Shown here: positions 782 through 17,853 of the stretch, piece by piece | How positions within the stretch are numbered: position 1 is the first letter of the stretch | Layout: every line of letters starts with the position of its first letter | NCBI GenBank assembly: GCA_019358935.1 | Contig: JAHHIK010000141.1 | Span: 1-18,086 of the forward strand | Length of the DNA: 18,086 bases | Origin: Tolypothrix carrinoi HA7290-LM1 | GTDB taxonomy: Bacteria; Cyanobacteriota; Cyanobacteriia; Cyanobacteriales; Nostocaceae | Reading direction: 5' to 3' | The notes under the pieces: generated by a model | What the model saw: only the letters and a program-made list of their open reading frames with translations | Databases searched by the model: none | What the model was told of the DNA's origin: nothing | Program-made: the position numbers and the translations under genes

Positions 782-1405
782 ATGCTAACTCTCGAAGCTA
801 TTGAAAATGTGTTGTCTGCACAAATCAAAGAACAGGCTTTACCAAAAGAAATCAAAAATCCAAAAGAGCTTCTTCAGAAATGGTCTTACTTTTCAAACCA
901 AGTACCACGGTTGCTCGGAGCGGTGCTTTCTCGTGTTAAAAATCCGGATATTCACTGCTTATATGCAAAAACTATCTATGGTGAGTGCGGCTCTGGAAAA
1001 AAGACAAAGGTACACGGTAGATTATTCACCAAACTTACTAATAATTCCCCTGATTTGGATTTTATTGTACAAAGTGTGGATCCGGAATTAGAACAAATTT
1101 TTGAAGAAGCTTTGGCTCACGTATCCCAGATGTCTCAGGATGAGTCAATTGGGTTCATAGTTGGGCTTGAAGCGCCTGCTTACGACATTCTGGATATCCT
1201 TAAAAAAGCTCTTGTTTTAGTCGGAGTAACTGAAAAAGTTGTAACTGGCTCAGAATATATGTTAATTCATGAACAGGTTGAAAAAGAACACCAGGAATCA
1301 GGACATGAGGCAATGGAAATTGCCATTAAAAATGGTAGTGATTTGAATCAAATCAATCAGGGTGGAAAATACGCTGTTATATTTTGGGAAAAGTGGTGGA
1401 ATTAG
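782..1405 (+). CDS. Heme-oxygenase-like diiron oxidase (HDO; CADD/TenA/PqqC-like iron-containing redox enzyme)
   Basis: 207 aa with an AGGAG RBS. The ligand pattern E68-H78 (GECGSG...VHGRLF), E130 (GLEAP) and H163-E167-H170 (IHEQVEKEH) matches the E..H..E..HxxxD/ExxH signature of HDOs. Confidence 0.8.
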   Translation: MLTLEAIENVLSAQIKEQALPKEIKNPKELLQKWSYFSNQVPRLLGAVLSRVKNPDIHCLYAKTIYGECGSGKKTKVHGRLFTKLTNNSPDLDFIVQSVDPELEQIFEEALAHVSQMSQDESIGFIVGLEAPAYDILDILKKALVLVGVTEKVVTGSEYMLIHEQVEKEHQESGHEAMEIAIKNGSDLNQINQGGKYAVIFWEKWWN

Positions 1406-1475
1406 TGAGCCAAAACACTATAAATAGGTATTTCTGCCGAAAGTTAGACTAGTTAATACTAGCAAATATCATTTT

Positions 1476-1524
1476 TTTATTCCGTAAAAATCTCACTAAA
1501 TTTGTTATATTTTTACGGAATAAA
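1476..1524. repeat. 16-bp perfect inverted repeat in the HDO-MFS intergenic region
   Basis: TTTATTCCGTAAAAAT (1476-1491) pairs with ATTTTTACGGAATAAA (1509-1524) across a 17-nt loop. Confidence 0.8.
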
Positions 1525-1620
1525 GATATGGTAAACTATCCAAATATGAGCCAAAAATTAAAAGTAAGTTGTTTTCCAAAAATAACAATATTTACCTGAC
1601 AACAAAAACATCACTATATT

Positions 1621-2865
1621 ATGGAAATGACAGTCAATCAAAACAAAAAAAATCCAGATTTTATCAAGCTGCTATTTGCCTCTTTTATATCGCAGTGTGG
1701 CAGCTATCTTCTCACCTTATATCTTGCAACTTTTGTATTTATTTCTTCTGGTTCACCAGTTAAATCATCTTTAGTTTTTATTTTTGCTTTTTTACCATCT
1801 GTACTAGTTAGCTCACAACTAGGCAGTTGGATTGACCGCTCTATCTCTAGATCATTCTTAATATATATAGAACTGTTATCAATTTTAACTAGTGCATTAT
1901 GTGGCATAGTTGTTGCTTACAAATTGCCACTTTTTATTCTTTGTATTGCATTGGGTATACGGTCTATTTTGACATTTACTAGTAGGACTGCTGCAACTAA
2001 GTGGCTAAAATGCATTACGCCTCTTAAACTACAGTCTTCACGTATGAAACTGCTGCTTTTAAGTTTCTTCTTATCTACAGTAATTGCTGGTATTTTAGCA
2101 GCACTTATATTACAATATAGTTCAATTAATTGGGTAGTTTTGCTAGATATATTGACTTATTCAATTGGCATAATAGTTTTACTTTCTCTACAAGACTTAC
2201 CAAGTTCGCTGCGCGAAAACTTCTTAAACTTACCTTTAGTAGATTCTAGTCTGACAAAAACAATCAAAAAGATTTTACAGACTCCAGAAATAAAAACAAG
2301 TTTTCTTTTTGTTTGCCTGTCTCAGGCAATTTTTCAAGGTGCTTATTCATCTTTAATATCAGTCCTTCCCATTTTAGGCTTTAACTTAAGTCCTAACGGT
2401 GTTGGAATGTTTCAGGTTGTAACTTCAATAGGAATAATTTTAGGCTTTCTAGTCAATTGGCATTACCCATCTTTATTAGAACAAAAAACAAAAATTCCTA
2501 GTCGTACCATCACTATTTTTCTGGTTGCAACTTTGTGTTTATTTTTAAGTACTCATACTAATTCTTTACCTTTAAGCCTATTATCTTTTTTTGGGTTTAA
2601 CTTTGCCTATGAGTTTATCTGGCTTTTCAATAATACTGAATTTTTCCGAGCTAGCCCCACTAATGATGTAGCTAGATATCAATTTACTTTGACAGCATGT
2701 GCATCACTCTTGATGTCAATATTCACTCTTGTTTATGCATTTGCCATTGAAACTTTAGGTCTTCCCAACGGAACCGTTGTATTTTTGATTATTAGTATTC
2801 TGTTAATGATTATCGTTTTTTACTATATAAGTCAGAATCTTACTTCCATTAGACAACAGAGTTAA
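1621..2865 (+). CDS. MFS transporter (probable exporter)
   Basis: 414 aa with about 12 hydrophobic segments. It has the N-terminal F.KLLFASFISQCGSY, a motif-A-like GSWIDRSISR after TM2, and a central hydrophilic linker. Confidence 0.88.
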   Translation: MEMTVNQNKKNPDFIKLLFASFISQCGSYLLTLYLATFVFISSGSPVKSSLVFIFAFLPSVLVSSQLGSWIDRSISRSFLIYIELLSILTSALCGIVVAYKLPLFILCIALGIRSILTFTSRTAATKWLKCITPLKLQSSRMKLLLLSFFLSTVIAGILAALILQYSSINWVVLLDILTYSIGIIVLLSLQDLPSSLRENFLNLPLVDSSLTKTIKKILQTPEIKTSFLFVCLSQAIFQGAYSSLISVLPILGFNLSPNGVGMFQVVTSIGIILGFLVNWHYPSLLEQKTKIPSRTITIFLVATLCLFLSTHTNSLPLSLLSFFGFNFAYEFIWLFNNTEFFRASPTNDVARYQFTLTACASLLMSIFTLVYAFAIETLGLPNGTVVFLIISILLMIIVFYYISQNLTSIRQQS

Positions 2866-2948
2866 TAATATACAGATAGCTCAACATCTGCTAATGAATT
2901 ACTTAGTAGATTTATCAACCAAAATGTAAACAAGTGGGAAAAACAAAA

Positions 2949-4202
2949 ATGGAAGCTACAATTATTTTTTTTGAACCAAAAGGTACTATTTTAGAAGTTG
3001 TTCGTGTTGCAAAAAAACGCAACTTTAAAGTGGTAGCATTAACCTCAAATGCATCATTAATACAGCAAGCTCCATATCCTTATAAAACAGCTGTAGAATG
3101 TATAGATGAAATTATCACGATTCCAAATTGGAGCAACTGGAATCAAATAATAGAAGTTATTGATAAAATACACGAAAAATCTCCAATTCGAGGAACATAT
3201 TCTGGAGTAGAACCTGCGGCTATCATTAATGCAACTATTAGAGAAAAATATGGACTGCCCACTATATCTCCTCAAAGTATAGAATTAATCATTAATAAGT
3301 TTACTCTACGCAATAAATTGCGGGAAATAGGTCTTTCAAAAATAAAAAATGTACATGGAAAGATTGTTGACAAGTGGACTAAATGGGAATTTAGCGGTTC
3401 CGCATATTTTAAGCCTGTTAGAGGTTTTTTTAGTGCGTGTGTTCAAAAATGTACAAATTTCGATGAACTGCAAATTGCTAAACAAAAGTGGCAAAATTTT
3501 GTGAGTAATGGCACTTCTTGGATTCATGACTATCTTAGCTCTATCAATGAATATCATTTAGAAGAGGCTTTTAATGGTGAATTAATGTCTGTTGAAGCTT
3601 ATACTCACGCAGGTCAATTTTATTCACTGGGGATATTGTCACGAATTTTATTTTCCCAAAATCCTGTAGTTGAAATGGGTTCATGTTTTCCATACCCACA
3701 TCCTCTGGCAGATAAAATCATAGATGTAGTCAAACAGGCACATGAAAAATTAGGAATTACCTATGGTGCTACTCATACAGAAGTTATAGTTAACGAAGCA
3801 GGTGAAATTGAAATAATTGATTTAAATCCTAGATTTGTTGGAGCAGATGTTCTTCAATCAATTAATTTTGCTTATGACATTGAAATTCAGGAACTACTTT
3901 TAGATATTGCTTTAGGGAATATTCCCAAAGTAGTCAATAATTGCAATAATTATTCTTGCTTGCAGTATATTCTTCCTCCGTCCTGTAACAAGTTGCTTTC
4001 TTTAACGTTTCCAACAGTGCCTGAAATTAAATTCTCTACTAACCTTATTCCTATAGGTTCAGATATTAAGAGTACAACTGAACAGACAGATGTTATTGGA
4101 TGCTTTTTAACAGTCATGCCTACATTTAAAGAGGCAATAAATTGTTCTCAAGAACTTCGTAAACAAGTATTAATAAATGACTCTCTAAAAGGTGTTTATT
4201 AA
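2949..4202 (+). CDS. ATP-grasp amide ligase (L-amino-acid ligase-like)
   Basis: Motifs seen: NKFTLRNKL, KPVRGFFSACV, LEEAFNGELMSVE, GATHTEV and IIDLNPRFVG. ATG 2949 is the preferred start; GTG 2934 is possible. Confidence 0.88.
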   Translation: MEATIIFFEPKGTILEVVRVAKKRNFKVVALTSNASLIQQAPYPYKTAVECIDEIITIPNWSNWNQIIEVIDKIHEKSPIRGTYSGVEPAAIINATIREKYGLPTISPQSIELIINKFTLRNKLREIGLSKIKNVHGKIVDKWTKWEFSGSAYFKPVRGFFSACVQKCTNFDELQIAKQKWQNFVSNGTSWIHDYLSSINEYHLEEAFNGELMSVEAYTHAGQFYSLGILSRILFSQNPVVEMGSCFPYPHPLADKIIDVVKQAHEKLGITYGATHTEVIVNEAGEIEIIDLNPRFVGADVLQSINFAYDIEIQELLLDIALGNIPKVVNNCNNYSCLQYILPPSCNKLLSLTFPTVPEIKFSTNLIPIGSDIKSTTEQTDVIGCFLTVMPTFKEAINCSQELRKQVLINDSLKGVY

Positions 4203-9523: not shown

Positions 9524-10687
9524 CTAAATCAGGGTTTCAACCTCCTGTAGCTTTTCTTGAAGGGCTTGGCGCAGTTCGGCAAGTCGGGGTTGCCCCAATT
9601 CTTTGGGATCAATCGATTGGATGGTTTTGATGGTTTTGTCCATCTGTTTGTCCTGCTTGGTTTTGGAATCAGGGGAATTGTACTGCAAAAGCTTTTGCTT
9701 GACTAGTGTTCTAGTCTGCGAGAGTGATAGTTTCTCTTGAACAACTTGCTGAGTTACCTGAGTGCAGATTGCCACAGCTTCAGTTTCATCAACATTCAGT
9801 GCGAGAGAGGAGAGTTTGTTGAGTTCTCTCGCTTTGCTGCTTTCCAGTCCAACAGAGCGAATGACACACTTGAGATCTTCTGCCAGTTTGAGTAGGGGAA
9901 AGATATTGTTGTTGATAGATACTGGATTTAGTTGTAGCCCCAGCAAAACTGAGACAATATCTTGTTCCTCAAGGTCTTTGAAGTCAGCCGTTTCTAGCCA
10001 CTGCTGTTGAGTTGTCATGTCGGCATCCTTAATCAGTGCAAGCTCCTCAAGGGTCTTGCTACGAATTCGTCGGTTAATGAAAGCATTAAGAAACTTTGGA
10101 ATCTCCTCTTCTCGGTCTTTGAAGTTGGGGTATTTATGAATGGTTAATCGAATCAGAGCAGTTGCTAAGTCAAGGTCATGAAGTTTTTCGGAGTGAATAC
10201 TGGTTACTAGTTGGCCTTCAAACACTGCAGCATCGTCCAGAGCATCCTCTTTGAGCAGAAACACAGCTTTTAGAGTTGTCATTCCAGCTAATGGAGCTGA
10301 TCGCCACCTAAGTTCTCCGTCAAATAGTTTGTACCGTCCACCAAGTTGTGGAATTAGCACAATTGGGTTTTTCTGCCCCTGCCTACGTAGACTCTCCACT
10401 CGTTCTTGAATTATCAATTTTGGGAAAGTTTGTCTAGGTTGAGTAGGGTCGGGATCGATGAGGTCGATCGCAATGTCGTGTATTCCGCCTTGGTTAGCTA
10501 GTTGATTGGTGAGTGACTCAATTTGTTGCTCTAATGCAGTTTTTTCTTCAGAACTCAATGCATTTGCTCGCAGTTGTGTAATTTCCGCTTCGAGTTCCTC
10601 TACCTGACTTTTAAGTTGGTGGATTTGCTGTGTCTGCCCTGCTTGCCCGAATAATTGACTCATCTCCACGGGTTTTTTGCTTGCCAT
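9524..10687 (-). CDS. parB: ParB-family partition protein
   Basis: N-terminal coiled coil, then IDPDPTQPRQTF, GQKNPIVL and DGELRWR (GxxR CTPase motif). It lies directly downstream of parA. Confidence 0.92.
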   Translation of the reverse strand: MASKKPVEMSQLFGQAGQTQQIHQLKSQVEELEAEITQLRANALSSEEKTALEQQIESLTNQLANQGGIHDIAIDLIDPDPTQPRQTFPKLIIQERVESLRRQGQKNPIVLIPQLGGRYKLFDGELRWRSAPLAGMTTLKAVFLLKEDALDDAAVFEGQLVTSIHSEKLHDLDLATALIRLTIHKYPNFKDREEEIPKFLNAFINRRIRSKTLEELALIKDADMTTQQQWLETADFKDLEEQDIVSVLLGLQLNPVSINNNIFPLLKLAEDLKCVIRSVGLESSKARELNKLSSLALNVDETEAVAICTQVTQQVVQEKLSLSQTRTLVKQKLLQYNSPDSKTKQDKQMDKTIKTIQSIDPKELGQPRLAELRQALQEKLQEVETLI

Positions 10688-10692
10688 TAAAA

Positions 10693-11550
10693 TTACTCCG
10701 TCATTAACTTGATTAGGCGCTCAACTATTGGGTTAAAGTCTTCACTTGCATCACATCCAGGTCGATACAAGTGTAGAGGTAGTCCTGCTCCACTAGCTTT
10801 GAGGTGGTAATTAGATTCTCTAATGTAAGGGAAGCAATGAATACCCATCTGTTGAATCAGGAAGGGGAGAGTTTTGGCTGGGTCAATGTCAGTTCTTGGT
10901 TTCCCTTTTTTGTCTAACCCCAGAATATCCCGGTGTGCCCCTACGTCGTATAAGTCCACCCGTGTAGGCACAAACCCCAAAATTTCGGGTTTGGGTTTGA
11001 GTCTTAGGTCATCCACTTTGCTGTAAAACCAATCCAAAAAGCCCGCGAAAGCTCCCGTATCTTTGTATTCTGGTTTGATGGGAACCAGTACATGCGTGCT
11101 TGCTGCTAGTGCCATTAACCCCATTGGCTCTAAAGAGGCAGGAGTATCAAAGATAATCAAGTCGCTCTTTAAGGGGAAGTCTTCCAATTTATCTTTGAAA
11201 GTGTAGTGACGGCGACTGTAATTGTATATTTCTCCGATGCTTTCTTCTAAAAATTTACCACCTTGTATAGCCGTTACGGTGGAAAGATGTTCAGTCCAAA
11301 GTGGAACAAGGGGGTAATCACCTTTGAATGTTTTTTTAAGGACAGTAGCAAGAGATTGCTCCATAGACGCAGGTGCAAGTCTTGCAAAAATGCACAATGA
11401 CCCATTTTGGTCGAGTTCTATCAGGGTGACTTTATACCCTTTGGCACCAACAGCATACGCTAAATGAGTTGCCATTGTGGTTTTCCCCGAGCCGCCCGCA
11501 TTGCTGGCGATTGTTAATCGAACCTGGGTTCGAGCAGGTTTTTTTTTCAT
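10693..11550 (-). CDS. parA: ParA-family partition ATPase
   Basis: Walker A SNAGGSGKTT, A' LIELDQNGSL and Walker B LIIFDTPAS. Confidence 0.93.
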   Translation of the reverse strand: MKKKPARTQVRLTIASNAGGSGKTTMATHLAYAVGAKGYKVTLIELDQNGSLCIFARLAPASMEQSLATVLKKTFKGDYPLVPLWTEHLSTVTAIQGGKFLEESIGEIYNYSRRHYTFKDKLEDFPLKSDLIIFDTPASLEPMGLMALAASTHVLVPIKPEYKDTGAFAGFLDWFYSKVDDLRLKPKPEILGFVPTRVDLYDVGAHRDILGLDKKGKPRTDIDPAKTLPFLIQQMGIHCFPYIRESNYHLKASGAGLPLHLYRPGCDASEDFNPIVERLIKLMTE

Positions 11551-11675
11551 GGAAATACCTTCTTAGGGGGAAGCAATTATTAAAATGCTCAACTAAATCG
11601 GGCAGGAGTCCCAACACAACCAGTTGCAAACTTGGTGTCGGGGACGCCAGACGCCTGCACTGGCTTCTCCGTCTT

Positions 11676-11697
11676 CCCTTCGGGACGCTGCGCGAAC
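11676..11697. repeat. Small dispersed repeat (SDR-like)
   Basis: CCCTTCGGGACGCTGCGCGAAC. Its core CGCTGCGCGAAC recurs inverted at 13772-13783. Confidence 0.5.
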
Positions 11698-11799
11698 AGC
11701 GCTGGCGAGAGGCTTGCCCGGTTTGATTTGGCGCGTCCTCCAACTGAATTCCCTCATAGGGGGAAGAAGGAGGAGGACAGCGACAAATCAAACAATTTC

Positions 11800-12960
11800 T
11801 TAACCTACTACGCACAGTCGTGAACTCCTTCTGACGAGTTTTACCGAGGACGGGGAAAACTGACCAATACGCGACCAATTGTGGTCGTAGATTGATACGT
11901 TTTTGGTTTTACCAGTATTAGTAAATCCACCGACCCATCCGTAAATGACAACTTTATTACGAGTCACCTTAACGTAATCGCCAGACCTAAACCCAAAGGG
12001 TGTAACCGTTCCCCCTTGGCGCTTTAAAACACCTCCAGTAGAGTACTGCTCTTGGTGCAGCTTTCTTCGGAACAATTTAGGACGAGTGATTACAATGAAT
12101 GGCGCTGGAGTAACTTTACATTCTCCTTCCCAATGATGTCCGTGAGTATTGGCGGCATGGAACTCTTTGTACTGAATGAAAGCACTAGAGGCGATTGCAA
12201 TAGCGTCATTCGCGTGTGTTTCTGGGGTCTGCTTAGATTTATCTTTTTTGTCTTTTACAAGCCTCAGTTGGGTACGAAACTTTTGGGTATCCAACGAATC
12301 CACCTCGATAACAGGAGCAATCTTAGCGGCTTGTTTTCTAAACCATTCTTGACCCACAGTTACAGGTGATATACCTTGACCATTTTTCTTGGTGTTGCCG
12401 CCACAAGTCTCGTCTCTAATTTCTGAGATGGAAATAATCTTAGACATTTCTGCTAGTATTCTTAACTCCATTTCACGGTTAGCTTTGATACTGGGAGGAA
12501 GTTTGGACTTTTTGCGGTGACTTCTTTTTTTACGGTGATTCCTAAGCTTAAAGGGCTTTTTACGGTCAATTCTTCGCCCTCTACGAGAGCGTCTTAACTG
12601 TGTGCGCTTCTCCATCTTTCCGGTTACTGATTGACGGTCTTTATTTTTCTTTTTAGATTTATAAAAACCAGGTAAGCAAGCATGGAAGATGGCAATTGTT
12701 GCTAGTTTGGTTTGAAAAGCTAGTCCTGTAAACGCCTTCCCCCTATCTGTTCCGGCTACTACTTCTTGTGTTTTGTAGCCAGATGGTTCGTGTAATAGCT
12801 GAACGTAAAAAACTCCAATTTTATTACGCTTACCTACCGCTTTACCACTTTGAATCCACTTTCTGCATCTTGCGGGTGTTGTGGGCATAAGTGGTCTGTT
12901 ATCTGGGGACACAACTGGGACGCGGGTAACTTTTTGTTGACTATTTTTTGGTTGTTTCAT
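11800..12960 (-). CDS. isrB: IsrB (RRXRR/PLMP, split RuvC, no HNH), an RNA-guided nickase
   Basis: RVPVVSPDNRPLMPT (PLMP domain), RuvC-I GTDRG, Arg-rich bridge helix RRSRRGRR, RuvC-II IRDE and RuvC-III THANDA. There is no HNH/CxxC insert between RuvC-II and RuvC-III; length 386 aa. Confidence 0.85.
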   Translation of the reverse strand: MKQPKNSQQKVTRVPVVSPDNRPLMPTTPARCRKWIQSGKAVGKRNKIGVFYVQLLHEPSGYKTQEVVAGTDRGKAFTGLAFQTKLATIAIFHACLPGFYKSKKKNKDRQSVTGKMEKRTQLRRSRRGRRIDRKKPFKLRNHRKKRSHRKKSKLPPSIKANREMELRILAEMSKIISISEIRDETCGGNTKKNGQGISPVTVGQEWFRKQAAKIAPVIEVDSLDTQKFRTQLRLVKDKKDKSKQTPETHANDAIAIASSAFIQYKEFHAANTHGHHWEGECKVTPAPFIVITRPKLFRRKLHQEQYSTGGVLKRQGGTVTPFGFRSGDYVKVTRNKVVIYGWVGGFTNTGKTKNVSIYDHNWSRIGQFSPSSVKLVRRSSRLCVVG

Positions 12961-12964
12961 GGGG

Positions 12965-13199
12965 ATAACCCAATTACTTGTGTTTAGGAAAAATCCAGTC
13001 CCTTCAGGCAGTCTGATGAGCGTTACTCTCGTTCACGACCGAGCCATACAGAGGGTCAGACTAGGGAAATATCCGACCGTGTAACCTCACCAAACCTCAA
13101 TGCCCTAACCAACTCTTACGATGCGTACCGATGAGCCTAGCGAACTAGGTTTTCCGCAAGCCTACACTGTACCCGAAGGTGTCAGTGTAGGTAGTTGAC
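12965..13199 (-). ncRNA. omega-RNA scaffold of IsrB
   Basis: ~235-nt non-coding, hairpin-rich tract directly 5' of isrB, starting GTCAACTACC. Stems include 13161-13191 (CCTACACTG...CAGTGTAGG), 13136-13149 and 13054-13078. Confidence 0.75.
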
Positions 13200-13602
13200 C
13201 CGTATTCAGTTATCGAGATGACTCCACAAGTATTCGTTGTGTCGCTAACTGCCTTTTGGGTAGTAGGCAACAACTGGGCATTTTTCAGGTCGATGCCTAA
13301 GACTCATGGACTTATTGGCTTTAGCCAATGGCTATGGTAAGTCGCGAGTAAACCTGAGTGGAAAATTGTTAGAGAAGAAATTTTTCTGACCAACTTAAAA
13401 ACCCCACTGCTCGTAATGAATTGGAGTTTCATAAGTTATTTATGCAGAAGTCAACTTCGGCAAAATGTTCCACTTAGTCGTCAGATTTTTGAGTTAATTT
13501 TCTGGTTTTAGGAGACTTTGCCACTCTCCCCCGTAAATCGGAATTTATAACCCTAAGTTGAGGTTGCTCCATTTTGAGCAAGGTTTAGCCCAAAATGCTG
13601 TG

Positions 13603-13668
13603 TTTTACTACTATTAGTAGTAAAACTAACGTTAGTTTCATGCTCTCAAGCAAAACTAACGTTAGTTT
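13603..13668. promoter_or_regulatory. Candidate parS/operator cluster
   Basis: The 16-bp palindrome AAACTAACGTTAGTTT occurs at 13623-13638 and 13653-13668. An overlapping IR TTTTACTACTA-T-TAGTAGTAAAA spans 13603-13625. Confidence 0.6.
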
Positions 13669-15486: not shown

Positions 15487-15700
15487 GATGATTCCTAAGC
15501 GGGAAAACCTGAGTGCGATTAATCCGTCTCCCTCTGCTTCCACGCCGAAGCATCGAACGGTAAGACATCTTTTCTTTCACTCCTGCAATAGCTGTACCTT
15601 GCTTGGGGATAAACCCCATTAAAACCAGATGCGACATAAACTTCTAAAGTTATCTCTTAAATCCGTTTCTAACCCTACGGGTATAGAAACGGTAGTTCAA
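15487..15700 (-). mobile_element. Internally deleted second IsrB/IscB-type element
   Basis: It has the end TTGAACTACC plus a hairpin (15663-15700), an RBS region GGGTTTATCCCC like that of isrB, and a peptide KEKMSYRSMLRRGSRGRRINRTQVFPLRNH homologous to the IsrB bridge helix. Confidence 0.75.
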
Positions 15701-15980
15701 AAATTGAGTCGCCGCAACTAAATTTATTGTGTCAGATGATAAGCACCAATGCAGTTCTTCTGCTTTTCTTTTAACCTGAAGGTTTTTAAAATCTACCACC
15801 AAAGTTATGTTAATTTATGAGAACAACCGTAGATTGAGTTGTTCAATAGCATATGGGGTATGAGTGGGGGCTATGCGTACCCTAATCGCTTTTTGAAAAA
15901 TTAACCCCTATACAGGGTATATATAGGTTATTCTTAGGGTATATTTAATATATAAAGTTGTTATACCCCATTTGACCCCT

Positions 15981-16934
15981 ATGAAGAACATTCACGCGAA
16001 TCAAAAAATTTTTTGTGCAGGTTTTGATAATGGCTATGGAAGCGTCAAACTGTTGGTCGATGGTTTTGATGTGGTGAGAATTCCCAGTTACATCTCACGA
16101 GAAGACATGGAGGATGTACCCGGTCGGGTGGTTTATAACGGCAACGCCTACACTATTGGTGAGTCGGCTTTCCGCACTGGATACTACTTTGAACGGAATA
16201 CGGACAACAACATTAACAAAGTAAATAACGCCCTCATCACTTTATTGGGTGCGTTAGCTCACTTGCCATATCGTAAGGCTTGGCACTTAAAGCTCGTTGT
16301 TAGCTTGCATGACGTGGCTCTAACTGATGACTTGCTGAAAGTGCTTAATGGTGAATATCAACCTTTATTGGCTGGCAAGCTATCTGATATCAAAGTAGAA
16401 GTTCTCAAAGTCGTACCTGAAGGTATGGGTGCTCTGGTGGGTAGAAAACTCCCCAAAAAGTTAACTGTTGTAGATTTTGGGAATGGGACAACACTTTATT
16501 CTCGTTACAACCAAGGTAAAAGAGAAGTCCATACCCCCTACGCTGCAGGAGTGGAAGTTCTCATTGGTGAGATTGCCAAGAAGATGAAACCTCTCAACGG
16601 TGGTAAGCTTGGGGACTTATCGAAAATTCGCTTTTGTTTAGAAATGGGACACACCAAATACAGCCGCGATATTGATATCAAAGATGTTTACAGTGTTTGC
16701 TTAAAGGAATGGTATGAAAGCTATTTGAAAAAACCAGTCAATCTCGCTCTTGATGCCAAACACCAAGGGGATGACATTTGGGCGATCGGTGGCGGTTGCT
16801 TGCTTCCTGGTTTTAAAAAACTGCTCGTGCAGAACGGGTTTGAAATTCTAGACAACCCAGTAGAGGCCAATTCTTGTGGACTATTTCAAATGGCTAAAAC
16901 CATTGTCAACTCTTCTTCTACCAACGAAGCTTAG
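15981..16934 (+). CDS. parM: ParM/StbA-family actin-like ATPase
   Basis: Phosphate-1 GFDNGYGSVK, connect VVPEGMGA, phosphate-2 VVDFGNGTT and adenosine AIGGG. The probable start is ATG 15981. Confidence 0.9.
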   Translation: MKNIHANQKIFCAGFDNGYGSVKLLVDGFDVVRIPSYISREDMEDVPGRVVYNGNAYTIGESAFRTGYYFERNTDNNINKVNNALITLLGALAHLPYRKAWHLKLVVSLHDVALTDDLLKVLNGEYQPLLAGKLSDIKVEVLKVVPEGMGALVGRKLPKKLTVVDFGNGTTLYSRYNQGKREVHTPYAAGVEVLIGEIAKKMKPLNGGKLGDLSKIRFCLEMGHTKYSRDIDIKDVYSVCLKEWYESYLKKPVNLALDAKHQGDDIWAIGGGCLLPGFKKLLVQNGFEILDNPVEANSCGLFQMAKTIVNSSSTNEA

Positions 16935-16962
16935 CAATTACGAATTACGAATTATATTTATT

Positions 16963-17265
16963 ATGGTTTCTCAGCAAGATAAAACTCCAGAAAAAGTCCG
17001 AATCAAAGACAGCTATCGCGATCGCATCAAAGCAGAATCGCAACGATTGGGTAAAAGTTACCTTGAGACGCTATACTTTATTGTTGATTGCTACTTTGCG
17101 TTTAAGCAGGGCGTGTTACCAATACAGTCTGCGGTAGTTAACACCCATACAACCCCCATAGAACAAAATCAGCCTACTGTAGATGAGTCAACTCATACCC
17201 CAATTGACCCCCAAGTTGAATCCGTTGATGATGAGGAAACTTTTACGCTTGATTGGGAATTGTGA
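16963..17265 (+). CDS. ParR-like small DNA-binding adaptor (probable)
   Basis: 100 aa immediately after parM. It has an RHH-like N-terminus (EKVRIKDSYRDRIKAESQRLGKSYLETLYFIVD), a disordered linker and an acidic/hydrophobic tip (DDEETFTLDWEL). Confidence 0.6.
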   Translation: MVSQQDKTPEKVRIKDSYRDRIKAESQRLGKSYLETLYFIVDCYFAFKQGVLPIQSAVVNTHTTPIEQNQPTVDESTHTPIDPQVESVDDEETFTLDWEL

Positions 17266-17341: not shown

Positions 17342-17853
17342 GGTAGTAATGCATAGTAATGATTTAATTTTGTAGACTAGCATTATAGTGATGAATAAAA
17401 TACCAGATAGCACCAATATGATTGTCCAGCATTTTGGAGAACGATAATGTTTTACGAACTAGTCGTCCTACTCGTTGTCGCAAGGTGTTGTTAAATCTTT
17501 CAATGTAGCTCGTTTTACCACTTTCACATGGACACTGCTTGGTGTCGTTTATTGGGTAAAACCTGTTCATAGGCTTCCCAAAAATCTGTGTAACACATTG
17601 CACATTGTCGATAGACAGGTGGTAGCGATTGCCATAATTGTTTTGCTGATTGGCGCTTGGCGATCGCCAATATGTACCCCAACAATTTCTCTGGTTGTAG
17701 CGTCGATTGCAAGCCAAATGAGCGTGTTTATTGGCTTTCGACCCTACATATGACCACATCTCATCCATCTGGATCATCAGCCTCTCTTTGTTTTTTTTTA
17801 GTCACTTCAACAGATTTAGGAACTTGGTAGTATTTCTGGTTGACGTAGTATTG
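17342..17853 (-). mobile_element. IS1-family element, 5'-truncated with a frameshifted transposase
   Basis: Peptides QYYVNQKYYQVPKSVEVTKKK, IQMDEMWSYVGSK, CYTDFWEAYEQVLP and GKTSYIERFNNTLRQRVGRLVRKTLSFSK are split over several frames. An A9 slippery run lies at 17791-17799 and a TIR-like GGTAGTAATGC at 17342. Confidence 0.88.

Follow-up and report, generated by a model that had tools for sequence, protein, structure and literature searches.

The window analysed here is an entire contig of 18,086 bp from a genome of 7.96 Mb. ORF calls and profile matches place parA, parB, an actin-like gene and ssb on it, and a search of a plasmid collection found relatives of its parA on plasmids; from this gene content and these relatives, the contig is likely to be plasmid DNA. 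The host gene parA (10693-11550, minus strand) is followed by parB (9524-10687), and upstream of parA lies an insertion with an isrB ORF of 386 aa (11800-12960, minus strand). The whole isrB element, a non-autonomous member of the IS200/IS605 family with ends set by empty alleles, is 1,607 bp long and occupies 11593-13199 on the minus strand. As the first-pass annotation had described, it is co-oriented with parA and lies between that gene and a palindrome cluster at 13603-13668. The cluster is host DNA outside the element and is likely parS or an operator. Its 14-bp palindrome is also found upstream of parA, at -24 to -507, in 4 of 12 homolog leaders (loci L073, L074, L075 and L085; L084, which has no upstream DNA, was left out of the count), and it is retained in the empty allele. 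Adjoining parAB at 15972-17265 (plus strand) is a ParM-type, actin-like gene followed by a small ORF, and this pairing with parAB is also present in several of the parA-homolog loci.

The isrB product matches RRXRR/PF14239 (E 2.7e-32), and its residues 9-380 are colinear with the DtIsrB chain 8dmb_P (E 6.4e-43), with a PLMP domain at residue 23 aligned to that chain. All three RuvC motifs are retained, as had been claimed: D72, E184 and H249/D252 are present, and a bridge-helix motif lies at 123. Among the best 120 of 416 homologs D72, E184 and H249 are conserved in 120/120 and D252 in 119/120. There is no Pfam match to an HNH domain in the protein and no insert between RuvC II and III. The DtIsrB match, the PLMP domain, the split RuvC and the missing HNH together uphold the identification as an IsrB OMEGA system; DtIsrB itself (PDB 8DMB; PMC9581776, in its accessible text) likewise has a PLMP domain and a split RuvC with an Arg-rich bridge helix, and lacks HNH. 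The protein differs from DtIsrB in having Q for N265, as do 27 of the best 120 of 416 homologs, and in an insert of about 12 residues after RuvC-I. IscB was considered and rejected, since NF040563 scored 69.5 bits, below its cut-off of 175 and over the N-terminal part only, and there is no HNH; IscB chains match no more than the N-terminal 185 residues.

A further difference from DtIsrB concerns the REC linker, where the Phe equivalent to F119 is deleted (one codon, between R146 and S147) and an N-to-H change lies two positions on. The description of the system as intact thus holds for the open frame and the catalytic residues and fails for this linker. Of the 119 other proteins among the best 120 of 416 homologs, 114 retain the Phe, and within these 120 its deletion is common only to the closest relative, P0002/L009, which is 85% identical. 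The F119A substitution lowered nicking by DtIsrB (PMC9581776, available text), and by analogy the missing Phe may lower activity here; we treated this residue as needed for full activity and not as a criterion of the IsrB family. Between the two Phe-deleted copies dN/dS is 0.086 at a dS of 1.05, within the range of 0.05-0.135 found for Phe-bearing pairs, one of which is saturated, and the branch-specific values are similar (0.22 and 0.25). Judged by these substitution rates, the two-member lineage is under purifying selection, and the loss of the Phe is an old lineage trait and no fresh lesion. The protein departs from 11 of 207 conserved columns, where the median is 4 and at least as many departures are seen in 7 of 120 proteins. 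On the whole, comparison with homologs suggests that this copy is probably a functional lineage variant, perhaps a weaker one. A second, distant isrB (46% identical) at G000:C148:652-1737 (L038) has an internal stop, and its 3' end is followed, by eye, by ATGA.

The ends of the element are given by four empty alleles, one a genome locus and the others contigs from three other studies, in all of which window position 13200 is joined to 11592. Both flanks without the middle were present in one genome among 100 relatives searched, whose locus L008 matches 13842-13202 and then 11593-9465 with a single letter between; locus L073, from the parA search, consists of the same BLAST pieces and was counted once. 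Contigs of X2, X3 and X4, which are 3 of 4 runs and belong to three studies, omit exactly 11593-13199, or 1,607 bases, with likeness set at 85 and short sides of only 23, 39 and 73 letters; one base at each of these joints can be assigned to either side. In X3 and X4 the sequence before 13200 runs into the parA leader as far as TCAA. There is no target-site duplication, and the joint carries a 1-base ambiguity. These alleles also demonstrate that the uninterrupted parA leader, proposed in the first-pass annotation as the target, exists in nature. The same annotation had offered the boundaries of empty alleles as a check on its reading; the flank on the guide side was placed correctly, and the 3' end was not, as the element does not stop near 11727 and continues to 11593. 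The ATCAA junction that it had proposed to look for in relatives was likewise not the one found, the empty alleles having another joint.

The fourth run, X1, which is possibly the source of the genome, carries the occupied allele. With the occupied allele confined to the likely source sample, against four empty alleles, no spread is visible. The empty joint was not seen in the X1 contigs, and contigs drop rare variants; in X6 no contig crosses the junction. Six records of the plasmid collection matched parA starts or isrB relatives, and none of them has this leader. The element flanks are 95-99% identical to the empty alleles, so the insertion is young, and the genome search found the element as a single copy. 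We place it in the IS200/IS605 family because it has subterminal hairpins at both ends and adjoins an unduplicated insertion motif of 4-5 nt.

The motif beside which the element lies is TTGA (11589-11592, minus strand), which belongs to the host and lies 42 nt ahead of the start codon of parA. It is next to the TAM-proximal end of the element (left end in TnpA terms), which comprises a subterminal hairpin and the terminal bases (11593-11643, minus strand). When the conserved end arm was used as an anchor, with no motif assumed, TTGA followed 10-13 nt past it in 28 of 30 anchored loci, the window included; the anchor was found in 30 of 43 loci and the other 13 were not counted. DtIsrB prefers an NTGA/TTGA TAM, in which its R323 and Q326 read G3 and A4, and an NTG TAM is given for four further IsrB orthologues (PMC9581776, as far as its available text goes). 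The equivalent residues here, R364 and Q367, are conserved in 119/120 and 118/120 of the best 120 of 416 homologs; the assignment follows the numbering of the 8DMB alignment, with the offset fixed on P17/P20. This locus therefore resembles DtIsrB (PMC9581776, same text) both in its TAM readers and in its flanking TTGA, which is the TAM measured for that enzyme.

In the first-pass annotation the element was thought to end near 11727 with ATCAA as the TAM, a reading that has next to no probability. TTGAT does occur at 11723-11727, where it had been correctly located, and BLAST similarity to relatives fades at about 11710-11730. ATCAA, however, lies 130 nt inside the element, where it forms the paired 3' arm of a predicted internal hairpin after the stop codon (11720-11799, minus strand); similar hairpins with varying arms occur in relatives, and the whole element end folds with a z of -5.5. 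None of the 30 anchored loci has ATCAA after the element end, and the empty alleles, all four of which resume at 11592/11593, rule out both the proposed end and the proposed TAM. The similarity breaks where it does because a repeat of about 71 nt is inserted in the element end at 11644-11714, in place of the 5-nt motif of most relatives, and it resumes in the terminal hairpin. This insert, which has 22 blastn matches in its own genome (self included), we take to be a small dispersed repeat; a search of the literature did not find a paper that defines it. L009 and L013 carry other inserts at this position, and short dispersed repeats are also present inside the omega-RNA scaffolds of L011, L023, L043, L047 and L052. 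With different repeats in three copies at the element end, and repeats in the scaffolds as well, these may possibly be insertion hot spots or tolerated sites.

The omega-RNA scaffold (12961-13199, minus strand) has a conserved start motif and a covarying fold and runs for 239 nt from 13199 to the ATG, in agreement with the earlier claim of a full omega-RNA-sized scaffold; it is shorter than that of DtIsrB, which measures 262 nt. Its topology is group-B-like, with S1-S4, SL1/2/4/5 and adaptor and nexus pseudoknots. DtIsrB has the same two pseudoknots in a group-B arrangement (PMC9581776), and the cyanobacterial CwIsrB and DsIsrB, of omega-RNA subgroup B2, share this pseudoknot topology and have an NTG-type TAM, by their description in the available part of that paper. 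The alignment held 18 of 24 scaffolds, six with long inserts being left out, and the 13 helices drawn include the two pseudoknots and exclude the SL7/SL8 region. In this 18-scaffold alignment 97.4% of cells are paired, and two-sided change is seen in 33 of 69 pairs, compared with 18.1 +/- 2.1 after shuffling (0/500) and 5-7 in slid controls, in a covariation test that leans towards the structure, which was drawn from the same sequences. All 69 modelled pairs are formed in this copy, and a single extra base that bulges from its adaptor pseudoknot is private to it. Folded as a single sequence, the scaffold gives a weak signal (z -1.70, with 10 of 200 shuffles doing as well), as expected because pseudoknots are left out, and Rfam gave no matches in the window at gathering thresholds, omega-RNA included. 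An IStron was rejected, as Rfam found no group I intron (0 matches) and the scaffold, the ORF and the element end fill the length of the element.

The predicted guide (13200-13219, minus strand) is host flank 5' of the scaffold, and its length of 20 nt is assumed from DtIsrB. The scaffold start at 13199 follows from a motif common to 29 loci, which were chosen by that motif, and the bases that precede it are unconserved across 28 loci, which fits a flank-derived guide. The first-pass annotation had read the guide from 13222 to 13200 on the minus strand, which is the correct reverse complement in the right flank, and its derivation of the guide from DNA 5' of the scaffold is supported by flank bases that vary among loci and are present in the empty alleles. 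Relative to the empty allele of L073, the guide has mismatches at 2, 18 and 22 from the TAM. The X4 contig has two differences over 13200-13272, and at most one is within the guide since the other is at 13264. No other match to the guide within 4 mismatches exists in its own genome, the best having 5.

That no tnpA accompanies the element was correctly stated in the first-pass annotation: the genome has seven Y1 TnpA matches, all on other contigs and several beside tnpB-like ORFs. Two elements, at G000:C19:61651 and G000:C129:5108, have ends that begin with the 10-base motif and the hairpin of the omega-RNA 5' end and continue into what resemble tnpB ends in reverse; the isrB element and these two may be served by one TnpA. 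Of the 19 relatives in which a crude ORF call gave an upstream ORF (two more have none), 16 have the nearest one co-oriented with the element, matching the read-through orientation bias with host transcription that is reported for iscB elements (bioRxiv 2023.03.14.532601, in the part available). Scans for promoters (2 found, 2.5 expected) and terminators (3 found, 2.9 expected) were at chance. A promoter-like site from that chance-level scan, at 13691-13664 on the minus strand, overlaps the palindromes and carries no weight as evidence. Expression of isrB from a putative par promoter is plausible; the 23 runs listed include no RNA run.

A role specific to the partition locus, as had been suggested for the element, is not borne out by its distribution. 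After removal of five duplicates and of the window itself, parA or parB was beside 0 of 42 related isrB loci, within flanks of at most 1.5-2.5 kb, and a full isrB was found at 0 of 13 parA-homolog loci, several of which have short upstream DNA. The only IsrB match at these 13 loci, in one of them, is a 50-aa remnant 1.5 kb away, which the window also has at 15488-15631. The older remnant on this contig (15486-15700, minus strand) consists of a hairpin resembling a scaffold start and a bridge-helix fragment of 50 aa, and is fused to what appears by eye, with no Pfam match, to be a fragment of a glycosyltransferase; in the empty-allele locus L073 it is at 2390-2533. A search of 388 other genomes of the family found the parA leader in one, and the remaining ParAs encoded in this genome share 25-28% identity, which restricts targets to the same plasmid lineage; the competing plasmids that had been named as targets would be only those carrying this leader. 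The location beside parA is likely incidental and due to chance, and parA is likely a bystander because any landing site would be targeted likewise.

We think it very probable that the element retains itself by RNA-guided nicking of its empty site, with parA as a bystander. The steps of transposition, expression, nicking and drive that we infer would be as follows. A Y1 TnpA encoded elsewhere in the genome would have placed the element in the parA leader, beside TTGA. Transcription from a host promoter farther up the leader, which may be the par promoter close to the palindromes, would run through the flank and the scaffold, and the 5' part of the RNA would thereby copy the flank as a guide. 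IsrB with its omega-RNA would then bind the flank and TTGA on excised or sister copies of the plasmid and, if it acts as DtIsrB does, place a nick 8-11 nt ahead of the TAM on the coding strand of parA. The occupied allele would be favoured because the nicked copy is either lost or repaired from the occupied one.

Alternatively, the element, its ends unchanged, could by now be weak or inactive cargo that landed, drifted to fixation in a clonal host and has begun to decay. The deleted Phe and its neighbouring N-to-H change, eight further conserved-column departures that are absent from the sister copy, the private pseudoknot bulge, the repeat inserted in the element end and the single copy in the genome all fit such a history, for which the older isrB remnant on the same contig is a precedent. 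We nonetheless regard it as unlikely. The frame is open with every catalytic and TAM residue in place, dN/dS has stayed low since the split from the sister copy (0.086 overall; 0.22 and 0.25 on the branches), the modelled RNA pairs are complete (69/69) and the near-identity of flanks and empty alleles marks the insertion as young.

Much less likely is competition tied to the par locus, in which element-free sister plasmids would partition poorly once bound or nicked 42 nt upstream of parA, and the guide would be supplied by the par promoter. In its favour, the target is the leader of parA, of which empty alleles exist, the element has the same orientation as parA and is downstream of conserved palindromes, and the spread of an IS among plasmid copies is driven by TnpB in a published case (PMC11870625, in its available text). 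Against this stand the absence of par genes beside the 42 related elements and of full isrB at the 13 parA loci, the abundance of TTGA (13.7 TTGA/TCAA per kb in this genome) and the lack of a near guide match elsewhere in the genome. Moreover, the guide would pair with the parA template strand, and, on the plasmid that carries it, the insertion comes between parA and the putative operator. It is similarly improbable that the Phe-less IsrB lineage, under purifying selection as it is, works mainly as a tight binder or slow nickase which, 42 nt upstream of parA, silences or destabilises element-free sister plasmids, a plasmid drive that would be based on nicking or binding and act through partition.

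Self-retention at the empty site, the reading that we prefer, has close parallels. In the available part of the 'peel-paste, cut-copy' study (bioRxiv 10.1101/2023.03.14.532601), TnpA excises elements scarlessly, TnpB and IscB cut the donor joint, the TAM is shared, and the guide is transcribed from outside the element. The isrB element resembles these IscB/TnpB elements in being non-autonomous, with a scarless empty site and a flank guide, and in that the TAM is the insertion motif and orientation is biased with host transcription (bioRxiv 10.1101/2023.03.14.532601). It is unlike them in that they make double-strand breaks (same source) whereas IsrB only nicks, and retention by IsrB is not among the cases in the part available. 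The work in which TnpB drives an IS through plasmid copies (PMC11870625) is similar in that the contig here is plasmid-like and the guide matches element-free sister copies; it differs in concerning TnpB and not IsrB, in using multicopy laboratory plasmids and, in the text available, in having no tie to a partition locus. Cutting of empty sites, plasmids included, is thus already published for TnpB and IscB. A 2026 review (PMC13565253), in its accessible portion, gives restorative homing for TnpB and IscB, and names IsrB only as a sequence-specific nuclease. A search of the literature by title, with subscription papers and bioRxiv supplements outside its scope, found no report of homing by IsrB, either in vivo or at a par locus.

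The element is an ordinary IsrB element, with its end and TAM now corrected, and it offers a clean natural test case and no new system. Its exact ends, matched empty alleles and Dt-like TAM make it suited to asking whether a nick alone can retain or spread an element, and the Phe-less variant could reveal to what extent the REC linker is dispensable in IsrB.

Elsewhere in the window, a three-gene cassette of low GC content (about 31-36%) at 782-4202 on the plus strand encodes a heme-oxygenase-like iron enzyme, an MFS transporter and an ATP-grasp ligase, and resembles a small-molecule biosynthesis unit. At 17364-17777 on the minus strand there is a fragment of an IS1-family transposase, which bears no relation to the isrB element.
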